From a bacterium (GTDB lineage Bacteria > Electryoneota > Electryoneia > Electryoneales > Electryoneaceae), in assembly GCA_963669175.1 (NCBI GenBank), contig OY769902.1, positions 3,712,001 to 3,776,000 of the forward strand: a DNA stretch of 64,000 nt, in the 5' to 3' direction. The position numbers were made by a program, and so were the translations under genes. Within the stretch, counting starts at the first letter, position 1; every line of letters starts with the position of its first letter. Below the pieces are notes generated by a model that was not told the origin of the DNA, did not search any database, and saw only the letters and a list, made by a program, of their open reading frames with translations. This document shows, in pieces, positions 38,229 to 44,588 of this stretch.

Positions 38229-38400
38229 TCTATTGATTTCTGTTCTATTGAATACTGTTATGACTAGCCTTGTTCCGTATCGGTAAAACTCGTACAATTA
38301 CTGATACTGCTGCACATATCCCGTTGACTGCCTGCCAGTACGCCTGATCAGGGATTGGATGGAACGCCCTCATTTTTTGCTCTCTACCGGGAGAACTGTT

Positions 38401-39423
38401 ATGGATACGCTGAAGCCATCGTTTCGGTTTACTGGTTACATGATCTCGCTAATCATATTCTGGACAATTGTTGTTGGCGCCTCCCTGGTTTGGAACCTAT
38501 ATACCCAATATCGTGAGAGTGAGGAAGCTGCGCGTGTTGAAGCACGAACGTCGATCCGAAAGGACATTCTTTACCGTTACTGGAATGCTAATCACGGTGG
38601 CGTTTACGCCCCTGTAACTGACTGCTCCCCCCCCAATCCCTACCTGAGTTTTATTGAAGATCGTGATATCGTTTCCGAATCAGGGAATCAATATACCATG
38701 ATCAACCCGGCCTATATGACTCGCCAGGTCTTCGAGCTTGGACATGAGAAATTCGGGATTCATGGTCACATAACCAGCTTGAATCCTCTTCGACTGGAGA
38801 ACAAAGCTGATTCATGGGAAACGAAAGCGCTTGAAGCGTTTGAAAGTGGCGCCCCGGAGTATAGTGAAACGATTGATATCGAGGGAATTCCTTATATGCG
38901 TTTGATGATTCCCCTTGAAACCCAGGATCAATGTCTAGGGTGTCATGCATCTCAAGGGTATCAACTGGGCGACATTCGTGGCGGTATCAGCGTTGCTATT
39001 CCGTTGCTCCCCCTGCGAAGAGTGGCAAGAGAACACATCCAGGCGATGGCAATAGGTCATTCCCTGGTATGGCTTGTAGGAATGGTTGGATTGGGATTGG
39101 GCGGAAGAAACCTGCGAAAGAGGTTTGATGAACAGGAACGTGCGGATCGAGAAGCCCAGCGTTCCCAGACAATCACCATGCTGGCAGGCACAATCGCTCA
39201 CGAGTTCAACAATCCCCTGGCCATCATCAAGGGATCTTCGGACCTGCTGACGATGAGTGAAAAACGCACCAATGAATGCGACGCGGCGCTCAAGAAAATC
39301 AGTCGACAGGTGATACGAATGAGTGAGCTGGTTGATAAACTCGGCAAGCTTCACACGTTGAAGGAGATTGATTACGCCCAGGGAGTTAAAATCCTTGATT
39401 TAAATGGCGATGCGAAGTCATAG
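38401..39423 (+). CDS. Heme-c (DUF3365/Tll0287-like) sensor with HisKA domain but no ATPase domain
   Basis: Two TMs, NPAYMTRQ, CLGCH heme motif, IAHEFNNPL H-box; ends ~75 aa later. Confidence 0.85.
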   Translation: MDTLKPSFRFTGYMISLIIFWTIVVGASLVWNLYTQYRESEEAARVEARTSIRKDILYRYWNANHGGVYAPVTDCSPPNPYLSFIEDRDIVSESGNQYTMINPAYMTRQVFELGHEKFGIHGHITSLNPLRLENKADSWETKALEAFESGAPEYSETIDIEGIPYMRLMIPLETQDQCLGCHASQGYQLGDIRGGISVAIPLLPLRRVAREHIQAMAIGHSLVWLVGMVGLGLGGRNLRKRFDEQERADREAQRSQTITMLAGTIAHEFNNPLAIIKGSSDLLTMSEKRTNECDAALKKISRQVIRMSELVDKLGKLHTLKEIDYAQGVKILDLNGDAKS

Positions 39424-39469: not shown

Positions 39470-39505
39470 GAAAACCTCCCACGCCATCGTGGGAGGTTTT
39501 CTTTT
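39470..39505. terminator. Bidirectional terminator
   Basis: GAAAACCTCCCACG-ccat-CGTGGGAGGTTTTC TTTT. Confidence 0.85.
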
Positions 39506-39569
39506 GAAGAACACACTGAACCTACTTACGTTTCGGCAAATATTCCGGTAGGTTCCTTTTGTGACTACG

Positions 39570-40400
39570 TCAGTGTTTTCCCGTTTCTGAGACTTCAGTC
39601 TCTTGTTTTTGTTTACTTTCCAGTTCTGGATGATGATGACGCACGATTTTTTGGTATTGGACCACTGTGGCGCGGCCCAGTGACAACGTCCGCATAATCT
39701 CGATTTGTGTCAACCCCTTCTCCATTAATGTCTTGATGTTTTTGTAAGTTCGTAAATAGCGACCCACCGCTTCAAGACTATGTTCCGTCTGCTTTGAGAT
39801 CGCAGGTTCATCCAGGCCCTGTTCATATAACGCAATAATAATTGCCTTGTGTGTCGGTCGACTGCCCTGGTCCAGCATGATCCCTTTTGTAGGCAGGATG
39901 TCATCATGTGTCGCATGGTAGCGTTGCAGGTATTTACCTACCGTGCTTAAGCTGCGATTCATCAGCGTACTCAGCTCTGCATGGCTCAACAGACCGCCCT
40001 GTTCGTACGCGCTTTTCACTAACCGAGCCATTACCTCCACATCACGGTCAACCTGCTTCAGCACATTTTTCTTGCCGTAGTGTCGTTGCACACGTACTTC
40101 GATGTCCTCTTCCGTCACCAGCGGCAGAAAGACGGTCTTCACCGGCACATCCTCCACACGGGTGCCGTAGCTCGGCTTCCCGCAACGGGCATCCGTGGTC
40201 CGCCAGACAACCGTACCCGGAGCACGTTGGGCGATGTCGGGATAGAACTCACGATGCAGCTCCAGGATGTCGTTCGCAAGCATCCCCAACACCTTCCGGC
40301 TGCCCAGGATCTTGTACTCTGTCTCCAGAAGACGGATGATCGCAGCCCGAAACTCCCGTTTCTGCAACGATTCGTAGTGGTTACGATATTCAGGTCGCAT
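39570..40400 (-). CDS. DUF1670-like multi-HTH protein (paralog 2)
   Basis: AYEQGGLLSHAEL, PTKG..LDQG..PTHK..II.LY, HS.EAV.RY; ATG 40400 after GGAGG. Confidence 0.8.
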   Translation of the reverse strand: MRPEYRNHYESLQKREFRAAIIRLLETEYKILGSRKVLGMLANDILELHREFYPDIAQRAPGTVVWRTTDARCGKPSYGTRVEDVPVKTVFLPLVTEEDIEVRVQRHYGKKNVLKQVDRDVEVMARLVKSAYEQGGLLSHAELSTLMNRSLSTVGKYLQRYHATHDDILPTKGIMLDQGSRPTHKAIIIALYEQGLDEPAISKQTEHSLEAVGRYLRTYKNIKTLMEKGLTQIEIMRTLSLGRATVVQYQKIVRHHHPELESKQKQETEVSETGKH

Positions 40401-41271
40401 CGACGCCTCCTCCAGCGGACTCTTTTTTTTCTCCCGCCACCGGATACAACGCCCGTAACTGGTCCAACAGTTCCGAATAAATCGACGGCCATAGATCACC
40501 GTCACGATACTTCTCGAATAATGCAAGATACTCCTCGGCCAGGCGTGGACTAATCTGAAGCAAATGGCACAAGTCCAACGGCTTTGTAAACCCTTTCTCG
40601 ATCAGCAACAACATCCGGCCGAACATGGTCACATACCGACGGATCGCCGCCGCGCTGTGCCGTGTCCGACGCATGATCGTATCGTACGTAAAACCGTTCA
40701 GGTATAACTCCACGATCCGAGACTTGTGCGAGCCCCCCCGTCCGATGTCATGGTCATACCCGCGTGTATGAACGGTCTGACCATCACGAATCAGCGCCTT
40801 TACATCGTTACGGATCGTTCGCACCGACACATGAAGCAGATACGCCAGATCCTCCTGGGTCAGCAACCCGCCCTGTTGGTACGCTTCTTCCGTGACACGC
40901 AATACACGCAGTTGACGCAGAGCCGACGAACCCTGATCCTGAAGAACAGCCATATCGTCGCTGCCGTCCACCAGGGTCAGCACCACACGCTTCTTCTCCT
41001 GCTCCGACAAAGGAAGCCCGTGGCGAGCACGCCGCGAAGCACACCAAAAAAGAAGCTTGCCCGGGGTCTGCGGAATCTCTCCAAACAGACACTCACGGGC
41101 AAGCTCTAAAATCCCTTTGCCAAGCGCCGGTGACAGTTCAAACTCGTCACGCAGACGACTGCGAAACACCCCCTCTGGCGTCTTCGACAAAACACCTTCA
41201 GGTACTGCTTGGACCAATTGGACCATCGCATCCTCCGATAGATGATGACCCGTATCCCTTTGCGATAACAT
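40390..41271 (-). CDS. DUF1670-like multi-HTH protein (paralog 1)
   Basis: EAYQQGGLLTQEDLAYLL.VS.RTI, TRG...DIG...SHK..IV.LY, HS..AI.RY. Confidence 0.82.
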   Translation of the reverse strand: MLSQRDTGHHLSEDAMVQLVQAVPEGVLSKTPEGVFRSRLRDEFELSPALGKGILELARECLFGEIPQTPGKLLFWCASRRARHGLPLSEQEKKRVVLTLVDGSDDMAVLQDQGSSALRQLRVLRVTEEAYQQGGLLTQEDLAYLLHVSVRTIRNDVKALIRDGQTVHTRGYDHDIGRGGSHKSRIVELYLNGFTYDTIMRRTRHSAAAIRRYVTMFGRMLLLIEKGFTKPLDLCHLLQISPRLAEEYLALFEKYRDGDLWPSIYSELLDQLRALYPVAGEKKESAGGGVDAT

Positions 41272-41324
41272 AACCTGAAAACCGCACCAGAAGACAGATC
41301 TAACCACCTACCGGAATATTTTCC

Positions 41325-44300
41325 TTATTTCACCAGGATCATCTTCTGAACCAGTTGTTTCCCGTCTCCTTCCAGCCTGTAGAAGTACGTTCCGGAAGCA
41401 ACTGCGCGTCCATGTGTATCCATCCCGTTCCAGGTTACCACATGGCGTCCGGCATCCTTCACGCCATCAACCAGTTTAACCACCTGGCGCCCCAGCACAT
41501 CATACACGGTCAAGGTCACCGGCATGCGCTGATCCAGTGAGAAACCGATCTGTGTGGACGGGTTGAACGGGTTCGGATATGCTGGCGACAGGGACCATTC
41601 GGTTGGGTGAAGTTGCCTTAAATCGTTCACACCAATCCCAGTGATCTCAATGTGCTGTGCATAGATATTTCTTAAGAATTCAGTATCAGTTGACCGATAG
41701 TCTTCCCATACACAGATAGCCCCATTCGCAGTAGTCGGAGTAATCATAGCATTTACTTGCATTTGGTAAGCCTGCGTTAAAGGCACACCATCGTATTCCG
41801 GTATTCCTTCGACCGGTACTCCTTCCGCATCCAGTTCTGTGCAGTAAAGATCAATAAAGTTGCTTCCAAACACTGATTCCCAAACAAGATAGACACCACC
41901 ATTGCAATCAGCGCTCAGCCTGGATTTTCTGCTATCTGAAAGATCCCGGGTAATCTGAATTCCTGTTTCAGGAACAAGTACAGGAGTTCCATCAAGATCG
42001 TACTTCTGAATGTAGATATCGGCGGAGTTATCCCTGTTTTCGTGCAGCCAGGAAACCCAGAATGATGATCCATCATTCGTCGTAATGCTGTTTATTCGTT
42101 GTCTGTCTTCAACATCTACCAGGGGTATGCCGTTTTCCTCCCAAGCGATTGTACCATCAGAATGAATCAATTGACCGTAAATATCACTATTGCTGTTACC
42201 ATTGCGATTATCAAGCCATGCGATGACTATACCATTTTCCACCTTCACCATAAACGGATATCTACGTCCTTGCTCACCGGAACAGATTGGAGTTTGCCAG
42301 CGAATGGTCCCGTCCTGCGACACACCACTCATATAGATATCACTTGTCCCCGGACCTGAATCTCTACTATATAGAATACCAATTGTTGCGTCAGTGGGTT
42401 CCTGATCTCCGTCTTCAAAGAAGACAATATCATCAAGAGTCTCATCCTCCTCAATTCCTTCGTTCAGGATGATACCTCGTCCGTCTTCACCTTCGAATTG
42501 CATCGAGCCATCAGTGTCTATTTTTTGAAGAAATACATGCTGATAATAGTTTGCTTCGTATTCACCTGTGAACGCGACAAAGATACCACCGTCCGGGGCG
42601 AGTAGCATTGTTGGCGTATAGGTCCCGAAGAAGTCAACTGTTGGGATAACAAGACCTTCGTCACCCCAATCCAGGGTCCCATCGGATAGAATATGTTGAA
42701 AACCAGTTGTTTGGCTATATAGAGGACGCGAATCTTTCCAACCGAGATAAATCCCTCCTTCACCATCGGGAATCATTGTCAATGAGTCGGTTAAGACACT
42801 TTCTTCTGGTGGTCCTTCCGGCAACGGGAAATGCGGTAGGGCACTGATTCCGTTTGCCTCAAACGCAGGCTGCCCGGTTGAGATATCCAGCTTTTGGACA
42901 AAGGGCAGACGGCCATAATGGCGGTACCTGTTATCAATCCACGCAAACCATACTTCTTCAGGATTACTGTGATTAACAGCAATGGCAGAACTAGTTGCAT
43001 TCCCACTTAAACCGGAATAGACTACTACTCCTTCGTCTTCCATCTGAATAGCGCCTGTTTCGAGGTCATGCCTTTGGAGAAATGCTCCCATACTACCTTG
43101 CCGCCATTCTTGCCAAAGAACAATAACGTCTTCGCCAACCTGATGCACTCTGTTCATTTCATAATAGTTGTATGCAGTGTATGCACTGGTTTCTATTCCT
43201 CCTTCAGCACCCCAGTCAGATGTTCCATCCTCGTTGATACGTTGTGTATAGACGTTATACTCATGACTTCTTCCTTCACGACCATCCAGCCAGGTGAAGA
43301 TTGCGCCGCCATTCCCATCAGCTATCCCCTTGATATTATTCTGACTTCCTATTTCATCACATATGGCAATGCCATATTGCTCTTCACCTTCCTCCCCCCA
43401 TTCAAGGACGGGTTGATTTTCTTCATCCATGGTAATTCTCTGCATGTACAAATCCGTGCCGCTTGGCCACTCATAGGTATGGCAGTGCTCCCATGCTAGA
43501 ATGAGTTCACCTTCACCAGCCTGAACCATTGCCTGTCTAGCAACAGAATAGTATTCAAAGCCAGGTTCATGCGGGAATAACTGGAGCCCATTATCATCCC
43601 AATCACTATTTCCATCTGCAGTTACGTGTGCAATCCTGAGCACTGCAGCAACTGAAAGCTGTTCATCATCAATCGCAACTTCTCCATTCCAACTGAAATA
43701 CGCTCCCCCGGCCCCATCAGGTACTGCTCTGATCCATCGTGCATAGTCAACGTCAGTGTCAAGCGCAACCCCGGATGAAGCCCCCCATGCCAGCTCACCT
43801 TCGGTTGAAATCCTGTTCATGTAGATATCATATTCATTTATATCTCTTGTATCGACCCACCCAGCAATTATTCCGCCGTTCCCATCAGGAACAGCACTAT
43901 AACTCTGCGTCCAGATTTCGCCCTGATCCTGATCGCCATCAGCAAAAGGATTACCATTGAGCGTCCAGTTGCCATCCGGAGTGCCATCAGCAAGAATATG
44001 CATCGCATACAGATCGCTATCCAGATTTCTGTCGGTGACCCAAATGACCATTGCCCCACCATCACCGTCATCAAACGCGCATGGATACATTTCCGTTGCA
44101 TTTTCAGTTACTGTAACAGCGACACCGCCATAGTCCGGACTGTTCTCCGGCCATTGGATATCACCTGCACTTGTCACTTTCTGCGCGAAAATATCACTTC
44201 GCTCCAGGATTTGAGAATCATTCCTGAAATCAACCCAGGTAATGATCCAGGTACCATCACTGGCTGCCATGACATAGGGTGACTCCTGGCGACTTCCGGC

Positions 44301-44588
44301 ACCCCGGGCAATTAACAACCCGTTTTCAGCCCATTGTGGTTGCCCCTCTTCATTATAAAGCTGGGCATAAATGTCGTTGTCACCTGTTCTGCAGTCACTC
44401 CAGGCATAGAGAATAAAGTCGCCGTTTACGGCTGAGCAGGACGATGTCCTGCCGTTAGTTGCCATTTCATCGCCCTGACGAATGGGCACACCGTCTTCCG
44501 GCTCCCACAACCGATAGGCAAACGCTGACTGGGAAAGGATTGCGATGGAAATCGCGAGGAAAAGGATGCGAGCAGTTCTGGTAATCAT
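41325..44588 (-). CDS. Large secreted repeat protein (DG.GG...W.D.R...DIY.Q repeats) with T9SS/FlgD-type CTD
   Basis: Signal peptide; many 'W.D.R...DIYAQ' repeats; YPNPFNP, WNG.D..G..VASG.YFY. Confidence 0.85.
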   Translation of the reverse strand: MITRTARILFLAISIAILSQSAFAYRLWEPEDGVPIRQGDEMATNGRTSSCSAVNGDFILYAWSDCRTGDNDIYAQLYNEEGQPQWAENGLLIARGAGSRQESPYVMAASDGTWIITWVDFRNDSQILERSDIFAQKVTSAGDIQWPENSPDYGGVAVTVTENATEMYPCAFDDGDGGAMVIWVTDRNLDSDLYAMHILADGTPDGNWTLNGNPFADGDQDQGEIWTQSYSAVPDGNGGIIAGWVDTRDINEYDIYMNRISTEGELAWGASSGVALDTDVDYARWIRAVPDGAGGAYFSWNGEVAIDDEQLSVAAVLRIAHVTADGNSDWDDNGLQLFPHEPGFEYYSVARQAMVQAGEGELILAWEHCHTYEWPSGTDLYMQRITMDEENQPVLEWGEEGEEQYGIAICDEIGSQNNIKGIADGNGGAIFTWLDGREGRSHEYNVYTQRINEDGTSDWGAEGGIETSAYTAYNYYEMNRVHQVGEDVIVLWQEWRQGSMGAFLQRHDLETGAIQMEDEGVVVYSGLSGNATSSAIAVNHSNPEEVWFAWIDNRYRHYGRLPFVQKLDISTGQPAFEANGISALPHFPLPEGPPEESVLTDSLTMIPDGEGGIYLGWKDSRPLYSQTTGFQHILSDGTLDWGDEGLVIPTVDFFGTYTPTMLLAPDGGIFVAFTGEYEANYYQHVFLQKIDTDGSMQFEGEDGRGIILNEGIEEDETLDDIVFFEDGDQEPTDATIGILYSRDSGPGTSDIYMSGVSQDGTIRWQTPICSGEQGRRYPFMVKVENGIVIAWLDNRNGNSNSDIYGQLIHSDGTIAWEENGIPLVDVEDRQRINSITTNDGSSFWVSWLHENRDNSADIYIQKYDLDGTPVLVPETGIQITRDLSDSRKSRLSADCNGGVYLVWESVFGSNFIDLYCTELDAEGVPVEGIPEYDGVPLTQAYQMQVNAMITPTTANGAICVWEDYRSTDTEFLRNIYAQHIEITGIGVNDLRQLHPTEWSLSPAYPNPFNPSTQIGFSLDQRMPVTLTVYDVLGRQVVKLVDGVKDAGRHVVTWNGMDTHGRAVASGTYFYRLEGDGKQLVQKMILVK

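Follow-up and report, generated by a model that had tools for sequence, protein, structure and literature searches.

A two-gene DUF1670 insertion element in the last codon of genes that end in a T9SS sorting domain

The window analysed here is a stretch of 64,000 nucleotides (contig OY769902.1, positions 3,712,001 to 3,776,000; assembly GCA_963669175.1) from a bacterium of the Electryoneota whose genome is one contig of 5.45 Mb. Within it lies a unit of 1.8 kb in which a pair of DUF1670 genes, open reading frames (ORFs) A and B, is enclosed by terminal inverted repeats and stands directly behind a gene whose product ends in a type IX secretion system (T9SS) sorting domain. Judged from the sequences of its copies and their junctions, this unit is one copy of a mobile insertion-sequence (IS) family, and the family is undescribed in the literature searched. 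By the same comparison the element is recently active and is both site- and orientation-specific: the reconstructed point of insertion lies within the last sense codon (AAR or AGR), after its second base, always in one orientation, in genes that end in a T9SS type A sorting domain. The element carries the bases 'A TAA', which complete the lysine or arginine codon and supply a new stop, so that the protein is unchanged. On this reconstruction the old third base, the old stop and the terminator of the gene are displaced 1.8 kb downstream.

Copies of the element and the site of insertion

Seven copies of a sister lineage, 67-68% identical to the window element, were found in the host genome. Each is 1,799 bp long, the pairwise differences amount to 0-5 bases, and the seven loci have unrelated flanks. 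All 16 matches to PF07900 (DUF1670) in the host genome fall within these eight elements. The 9-mer CCGGTAGGT occurs 42 times in the host genome; the full repeat context is confined, across that whole genome, to the ends of the window element and the seven sister copies, which excludes a chance pairing of repeats. Copies that are 85-95% identical and have different flanks were present in three other studies (marine sediment, a microbial mat and one other metagenome). Consistent with the element as redrawn here (39528-41328), contigs from other studies match the window only over 39520-41330/41336 and then diverge. A word-index search returned 1,177 relatives of ORF B at E ≤ 1e-3, many of them on contigs about as long as the element (~1.8-2.0 kb), and relatives of ORF A were found likewise; repeats are known to yield element-sized contigs in assemblies. 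A profile search of 1.84 billion representatives gave 977 clusters.

The distribution of the family is patchy. It is present in 3 of 79 genomes of the host phylum and was not found in a genome of the same genus (92% complete, in 390 contigs), whose incompleteness leaves the absence unproven. When one genome per species was scanned, 28 loci were found, in metagenome-assembled genomes (MAGs) labelled Bacteroidota, Ignavibacteriaceae, Melioribacteraceae, Neomarinimicrobiota, KSB1, Caldithrix, Fibrobacteres and others. One MAG of 6.5 Mb holds eight copies, seven of which (L018, L019, L021-L024 and L026) are identical in the printed junction and end stretches. Family members labelled Anaerolineae and a match in a Methanosarcina control genome indicate that the wider family is not tied to hosts with a T9SS. 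The plasmid collection gave no match to the element.

Junctions were examined in 35 insertions from several phyla, namely the loci of the species scan and the eight copies of the host genome. Read in coding orientation, 'A TAA' stands directly upstream of the repeat in all 35. In 32 of them the upstream gene, which shares its strand with ORF A and ORF B, has a tail resembling that of a T9SS sorting domain by eye (...SG.YFY...K-M-x-L-x-K/R); of the remaining three, L013 and L032 lie at contig ends and L028 is off-target. The nine target tails tested against TIGR04183 (cut-off 23 bits) all passed, that of the window gene with 43.5 bits. By our own profile the host genome has 335 ORFs with a sorting domain, 281 of which end in AAR or AGR. 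The motif 'stop then repeat' occurs nine times among the 13,066 host ORFs of ≥100 amino acids, in each case behind an ORF with a sorting domain.

The upstream junction is constant within one lineage (...AAA TAA GGAA...). The distal junctions vary among identical copies and, in 31 of the 32 that were readable, consist of AAA, AAG, AGA or AGG followed by TAA, TAG or TGA; those of the sister lineage are AAA TAG (four), AAG TGA (two) and AAG TAG (one). We read this distal lysine or arginine codon with its stop as what would be the original end of the target gene. Between it and the distal repeat lie 7 nucleotides (nt) that are lineage-specific and constant among copies (TAATAGT, TAAACGT, TAATAGA or GAAACGT). 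Of 32 insertions, 31 have the same dinucleotide at their two junctions (29 AA/AA and 2 AG/AG), the exception being L032, at a contig end, and a scan of metagenomes for arginine-type junctions added one CG/CG case, L059. The shared dinucleotide may be either a target duplication or a crossover overlap.

The reconstructed target holds ~20 bits from -15 to +5, with AA at -15/-14, T at -11, -8, -5 and -2, and then AA R T R R. This signal shows codon periodicity and may partly reflect coding constraint on the sorting domain, not only recognition by the element. No consensus follows the stop in uninterrupted sorting-domain genes, and because nothing is conserved there, recognition must rest on the coding side.

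An initial annotation, made from the window sequence, had drawn a mobile IS-like element at 39535-41324, with 19-bp terminal inverted repeats matching at 18 of 19 positions and two overlapping, paralogous DUF1670 ORFs as its only genes, inserted between a gene and its terminator. The repeats, the gene pair and the separation from the terminator, whose hairpin is real on both strands, have all held up, and mobility is now supported by copies in the host genome and elsewhere. The extent was correct in that the repeats bracket the element, and too short by 7 nt to the left and 4 nt to the right of them. The TAA abutting the right repeat had been assigned to the gene; constant in 35 of 35 insertions, it belongs to the element. 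The earlier statement that there is no clean target-site duplication is revised to a 2-nt flanking repeat, TT on the + strand at 39526-27 and 41329-30. The oriented insertion into the last codon of T9SS genes, the element-borne stop and the 2-nt flanking repeat are additions to that annotation.

Several loci appear to be products of decay. At two sorting-domain genes (G000:C1:800634 and 2946988), only the opening 12-14 bases of the sister repeat stand after AAA TAA, and unrelated DNA comes next. From their sequence these are probably solo-end scars, in which the stop codon would be a relic of a lost element. The arginine-type scan gave 51 pattern matches, ~32 of them behind tails like those of sorting domains, and the others have the look of chance or unrelated hits; of 22 of these loci read at the junction, at least 8 hold only the first 20-25 bases of the repeat. 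At L073 and L087, units of ~90 nt behind T9SS genes have the upstream repeat at one end and its inverted copy at the other, with a short hairpin between, and by this structure may be miniature non-autonomous derivatives. L035 and L072 have ~75 nt of downstream flank in common, including a hairpin terminator, while their upstream genes have diverged and the rebuilt codon is AGA in one and CGA in the other; they are probably one old, vertically inherited insertion whose codon would later have changed synonymously from AGA to CGA.

Further observations concern single loci. Two sister copies outside the window, at ~1195509-1197307 and 1204369-1206167 of G000:C1, lie ~8.9 kb apart behind two paralogous T9SS genes with the tails ...SGTYFVRLESDGVNLTSKMVLLK and ...SGTYFVRLEGENVSLTRRMVLLK. 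They look like separate insertions and not like one duplicated block, because the old stops differ (AAA TAG and AAG TGA). The string ..CATATGACC.. stands just past the old stop in three unrelated insertions (L022, L025 and L102). No second element was found behind L015, L029, L025 or L027. No excision or circle junction on the element was seen in the public runs, all of them assembled contigs, and a degenerate pattern for a head-to-tail (circle or tandem) junction had 0 matches in metagenome contigs. The public-run contigs held one unrelated joint, from 41347 to 41559, in the sorting-domain region. A different repeat, present in three copies (G000:C1:4219336, 4560546 and 4633321), contains the 9-mer ACCTACCGG in the context GAAATCGTGATAACCTACCGGACAGCAGTG and is likely the end of another repeat family.

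The DUF1670 proteins and the leader hairpin

ORF A and ORF B match DUF1670 with 165 and 161.7 bits, respectively (gathering cut-off 25), and are paralogous to each other (31% identity over 196 aa, E 2e-16; hhalign probability 98.5% over ~200 columns). Gene callers of public collections predict an identical 278-aa product for ORF A. The arrangement of the genes is conserved: the end of ORF A overlaps the start of ORF B by 1-14 nt in all 18 relatives in which ORF A was found, and at a nineteenth locus, L015, no full ORF A was found. There was no third conserved ORF, L017 and L018 holding only ORF A and ORF B at ≥60 aa. The two-gene unit is kept at ~55% protein identity across phyla. In every pair that was not saturated (8 of 10 for ORF A, 7 of 10 for ORF B) the ratio of nonsynonymous to synonymous substitution (dN/dS) fell within 0.04-0.09; by this measure both ORFs are under strong purifying selection.

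AlphaFold2 models (pLDDT 71 for ORF B and 68 for ORF A) begin with two helices at the N terminus, followed by a sheet of two or three strands, further helices and three helix-turn-helix (HTH) units. The best Foldseek matches, all below threshold, were to sigma factors, TFIIB, the Pax6 paired domain, the DNA-binding part of Mos1, and RecX. Neither ORF matches TnsA, TnsB or TnsC in Pfam or NCBIfam. No NCBIfam model reaches its cut-off, the IS21 model scoring 20.8 bits against 160 and the IS630 model 16.3 against 100, both on HTH stretches only; the weak HTH_23 and HTH_29 matches fall on the HTH region, as do those of IS630 models. For serine recombinases there was no Pfam match and none among the Foldseek matches listed, and the models do not have the resolvase fold; some homologues give resolvase-type HTH_7 matches. 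A protein atlas gave only small archaeal HTH clusters, with scores ≤ 0.80.

Two residues, H184 and Y215 (ORF B numbering), are the only ones invariant across 77 diverse representatives, and G62, L92, R126, A131, L138, P170, G173, D177, G179, K185, H207 and Y249 are kept in ≥90%. The spacing G-6-I-6-HS resembles box II of tyrosine recombinases, and hhalign chose that register against the 10 integrases of the host's own genome, with a probability of 0.9% and E 0.062. A tyrosine-recombinase-like reading of the H...HS...Y stretch is thus attractive, statistically unsupported, and taken here as a possible lead only. A tyrosine motif at the N terminus of ORF A was considered as the nucleophile and rejected, the motif not being conserved in the window lineage and its near relatives.

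Longer relatives occur: the 10 tested were all without any domain beyond DUF1670 modules. Those of 930-952 aa (P0146, P0148, P0161 and P0165) are three fused DUF1670 modules, one of 544 aa is a fusion of A and B, and those of 414-433 aa have an extra N-terminal stretch that matches no Pfam family. In some lineages the proteins of the element appear to be made as one chain. The names given to family members by their sources are 'hypothetical', 'DUF1670 domain-containing', 'biotin operon repressor', 'CsgD family regulator' and 'predicted transcriptional regulator', and the A-B run-on protein P0037 has the JGI name 'predicted GIY-YIG superfamily endonuclease'; 'transposase' was the name of none among the matches listed.

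The ~100 nt between the upstream repeat and the start of ORF A are predicted to fold into a long hairpin (-42.6 kcal/mol, z -5.5, with none of 200 shuffles as good). The same architecture was present in all eight other family members folded (z -4.8 to -7.8). In an alignment of 16 sequences, 86.6% of the cells of a 16-pair outer stem are paired, against 34-61% in slid controls, and five of its pairs change on both sides (15 cells, against 0 of 500 shuffles). The hairpin would be the usual IS device against activation by read-through, a block that matters here because the element always stands directly behind an expressed gene.

Candidate mechanism, alternatives and known systems

We lean towards the view that the DUF1670 pair is the putative transposition machinery of the element itself, catalysis included. 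The two translationally coupled, multi-HTH proteins would bind both the near-palindromic ends of the element and the conserved DNA that codes for the sorting-domain tail. They would bring the ends and the target together and perform, or at least direct, the cutting and rejoining, with a stagger or overlap of 2 nt, and would be a transposase of no known chemical class, while the leader hairpin would keep read-through transcripts of the host gene untranslated. More tentatively, and with rather less than even assurance, we suggest that the pair represents a new chemical class of transposase or site-specific recombinase, composed of HTH modules, a small N-terminal domain and a conserved linker of the form T-[KR]-G...D-x-G...[ST]-H-K. 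Its landing site would be the coding DNA of a sorting signal, and it would have spread through bacteria and archaea unnoticed, annotated as a regulator.

A number of results weigh against an enzyme made of the two proteins. Pfam, NCBIfam (HTH-type matches only), a search of PDB sequences and Foldseek revealed no catalytic domain, fold or motif in ORF A or ORF B, in agreement with the initial annotation, which had seen no DDE, HUH, serine-recombinase or IS110 motif. Foldseek gave 0 matches in the PDB at E ≤ 0.001 for either model, models of this moderate quality being able to hide a fold, and the profile search of PDB sequences returned nothing for ORF B and only HTH-like matches, at E ≥ 0.011, for ORF A. 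The predicted complex of A and B reached an ipSAE of 0.40 (best control 0.00), in a band where passes are more often wrong than right, and is given no weight as evidence. With this score, and with no catalytic fold or motif, the heteromeric mobility enzyme that had been one branch of the initial annotation is a candidate only. An N-terminal S-L-Y-D-R motif, present in 19 of 20 aligned ORF A sequences, is absent from ORF A of the window, whose nearer relatives vary at it too. The window-type element is present in a single copy in the host genome. Finally, no empty allele was found when the 3′ part of the target gene was compared with 41 related genomes, which gave only sorting-domain similarity and no orthologue.

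The absence of a catalytic fold from both proteins speaks for an account that we consider the less probable one, in which the pair only recognises ends and target and a host enzyme acting in trans, either recruited in the manner of XerCD or a host tyrosine recombinase, cuts and joins. The host genome encodes 10 tyrosine recombinases, and an identity of 2 nt beside a short non-identical stretch is reminiscent of homology-tolerant tyrosine integrases such as IntDOT. However, none of the 10 integrase genes adjoins any copy, the insertion site is not dif-like, and with hosts that span phyla of the FCB group, Anaerolineae and Methanosarcina the partner would need very wide conservation. The view that the pair itself carries out transposition is also to be set against a passive origin, the non-autonomous branch of the initial annotation, in which the unit would have arisen by deletion from, or as a cargo cassette of, some longer element with a conventional transposase and equal repeats. 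The ~90-nt units and the solo-end scars indicate that repeats can outlive the genes, as such an origin would have it. Yet the one-contig host genome holds no longer or other element with these repeats, 28 loci in several phyla keep the 1.8-kb two-gene unit at the protein identity given above, the longer proteins tested contain DUF1670 modules and no transposase domain (10 of 10, from public collections that were sampled, not exhaustively searched), and purifying selection as strong as that on both ORFs is unexpected for passive cargo. With copies found and none of the longer members tested carrying a conventional transposase domain, this origin is disfavoured and appears very improbable.

Least credible of all is a non-mobile module of two regulators of T9SS cargo genes, inherited together with them. 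The names given by the sources, the constant position behind T9SS genes and the old, apparently vertical insertion at L035 and L072 would agree with it, but near-identical copies stand behind unrelated T9SS genes, the far junction retains the old codon and stop, one copy (L028) is off-target, and the family is distributed patchily, the module not having been found in the same-genus genome.

Each known family with which the element was compared differs from it in a central feature. Like Tn7, which is directed to attTn7 by TnsD, the element uses 3′ coding DNA as its landing mark, inserts in one orientation and leaves the product intact, a logic of safe sites. Tn7 depends on TnsA, B, C and D, duplicates 5 bp and inserts downstream of glmS, whereas the element has only two small HTH proteins, has 2 nt common to its junctions and lands inside the last codon, which it rebuilds; the target of Tn7 is a single gene, that of the element a domain family with 335 ORFs in the host genome. 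With IS630 and Tc1-mariner the element has in common its terminal inverted repeats, the 2 nt repeated at its flanks and the pairing of HTH DNA-binding modules, but it is without a DDE/DDD domain, is flanked by AA or AG and not by TA, and has two genes instead of one. The occurrence of one dinucleotide at both junctions, the polarity that a non-palindromic dinucleotide confers and the HTH_7 matches of some homologues recall serine-recombinase elements (IS607, resolvases and invertases); no serine catalytic domain was found here, however, and inverted repeats are present, which IS607 is not known to have. In integrative elements that rebuild gene ends (islands in tRNA and tmRNA genes; phage e14 in icd), incoming DNA likewise replaces the displaced end and the gene stays functional. 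Tens of bases are replaced by those elements, which rely on tyrosine or serine integrases, whereas the replacement here is of only 4 nt and no integrase is encoded. Two co-transcribed, coupled and conserved genes are also found in the two-protein transposons IS21 (IstA/IstB) and PIF/Harbinger (a transposase with a Myb-like protein). One partner in those is a DDE enzyme, but the partners here are paralogous and both lack any known catalytic domain. For each compared family that could be checked, the catalytic feature that defines it is missing from the element.

ISDol1 (ISNCY) has a single transposase ORF. It was set aside as the identity of the element on that description, which sets it apart by description and not by sequence. 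The digIS article (PMC8147514) mentions transposase models built for the ISDol1 subfamily. A lexical search of the literature, its wider queries judged on titles and abstract openings and with supplements outside its reach, gave no description of a two-gene DUF1670 element family and, in its top listings, nothing relevant on new IS families that lack a recognised transposase, and the terms 'DUF1670' and 'PF07900' returned no paper.

If ORF A and ORF B are indeed the enzyme, they would make up a transposase class distinct from the DDE, DEDD, HUH, serine and tyrosine enzymes, and DUF1670 would gain a function. Even with the chemistry of a host enzyme, the DNA for a conserved secretion signal, with hundreds of occurrences in a genome, would serve in an unusual way as a harmless landing pad, the element bringing its own codon base and stop so that the host gene stays whole. 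In practice, some stop codons of T9SS genes are element-borne or scars of old insertions, and these units, annotated as regulators, break metagenome assemblies at T9SS genes. Precise, oriented insertion may also be of interest as a tool.

Features of the element and its surroundings

Coordinates of the features are collected in the table. The starts of ORF A and ORF B are those chosen as plausible behind ribosome sites of the GGAGG type.

Features of the DUF1670 element and adjoining DNA (window positions; the strand is that of the genes where one applies)
Feature	Position	Strand	Remarks
Whole element, redrawn	39528..41328	-	1,801 bp; genes on minus strand; junction rule in 35 insertions
Distal (downstream) terminal inverted repeat	39535..39553	.	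Sequence GGCAAATATTCCGGTAGGT
Gene-proximal (upstream) terminal inverted repeat	41306..41324	.	Reverse complement GGAAAATATTCCGGTAGGT; 18/19 match to distal repeat
'A TAA' carried by the element	41325..41328	-	Third base of the target's last Lys codon and the stop now used; constant in 35/35 insertions
AA dinucleotide, upstream copy of the 2-nt flanking repeat	41329..41330	-	First two bases of the last Lys codon
GAAACGT (gene strand), 7 nt between distal repeat and flanking dinucleotide	39528..39534	-	Part of the element
AA dinucleotide, downstream copy of the 2-nt flanking repeat	39526..39527	-	
G TAG, original third codon base and stop of the target gene	39522..39525	-	Stranded behind the element
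ORF A, DUF1670, 278 aa	40390..41226	-	N-terminal helix/beta-sheet module, then three helix-turn-helix units
ORF B, DUF1670 paralogue, 276 aa	39570..40400	-	Overlaps ORF A by 11 nt at its start
Leader hairpin	41234..41315	-	Inner half of the upstream repeat pairs with a stretch that includes the ORF A Shine-Dalgarno
Target gene, 1,087-aa protein with C-terminal T9SS type A sorting domain (residues 1004-1085)	41329..44588	-	TIGR04183 43.5 bits against cut-off 23
Two-way hairpin terminator	39470..39505	.	~16 nt past the gene's original stop; now 1.8 kb from the gene

In the family as a whole, terminal inverted repeats of 19-23 bp surround the 1.8-kb unit, and the repeat core GGAA....TTCCGGTAGG is kept. 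The outer 12 nt of the upstream repeat form a near-palindrome of the type GGAAAT|ATTTCC. Rfam gave zero family matches in the element.

The terminator hairpin downstream of the element has a 14-bp stem and a predicted stability of -26.5 and -25.6 kcal/mol on the two strands (z -5.5 and -5.3); it was absent from the list of a simple terminator scan. In all four public runs, short matches from many unrelated contigs were found to positions 39133-39243 of the window, within a histidine-kinase-like gene (38359-39423). This stretch is a conserved kinase motif and lies outside the element.

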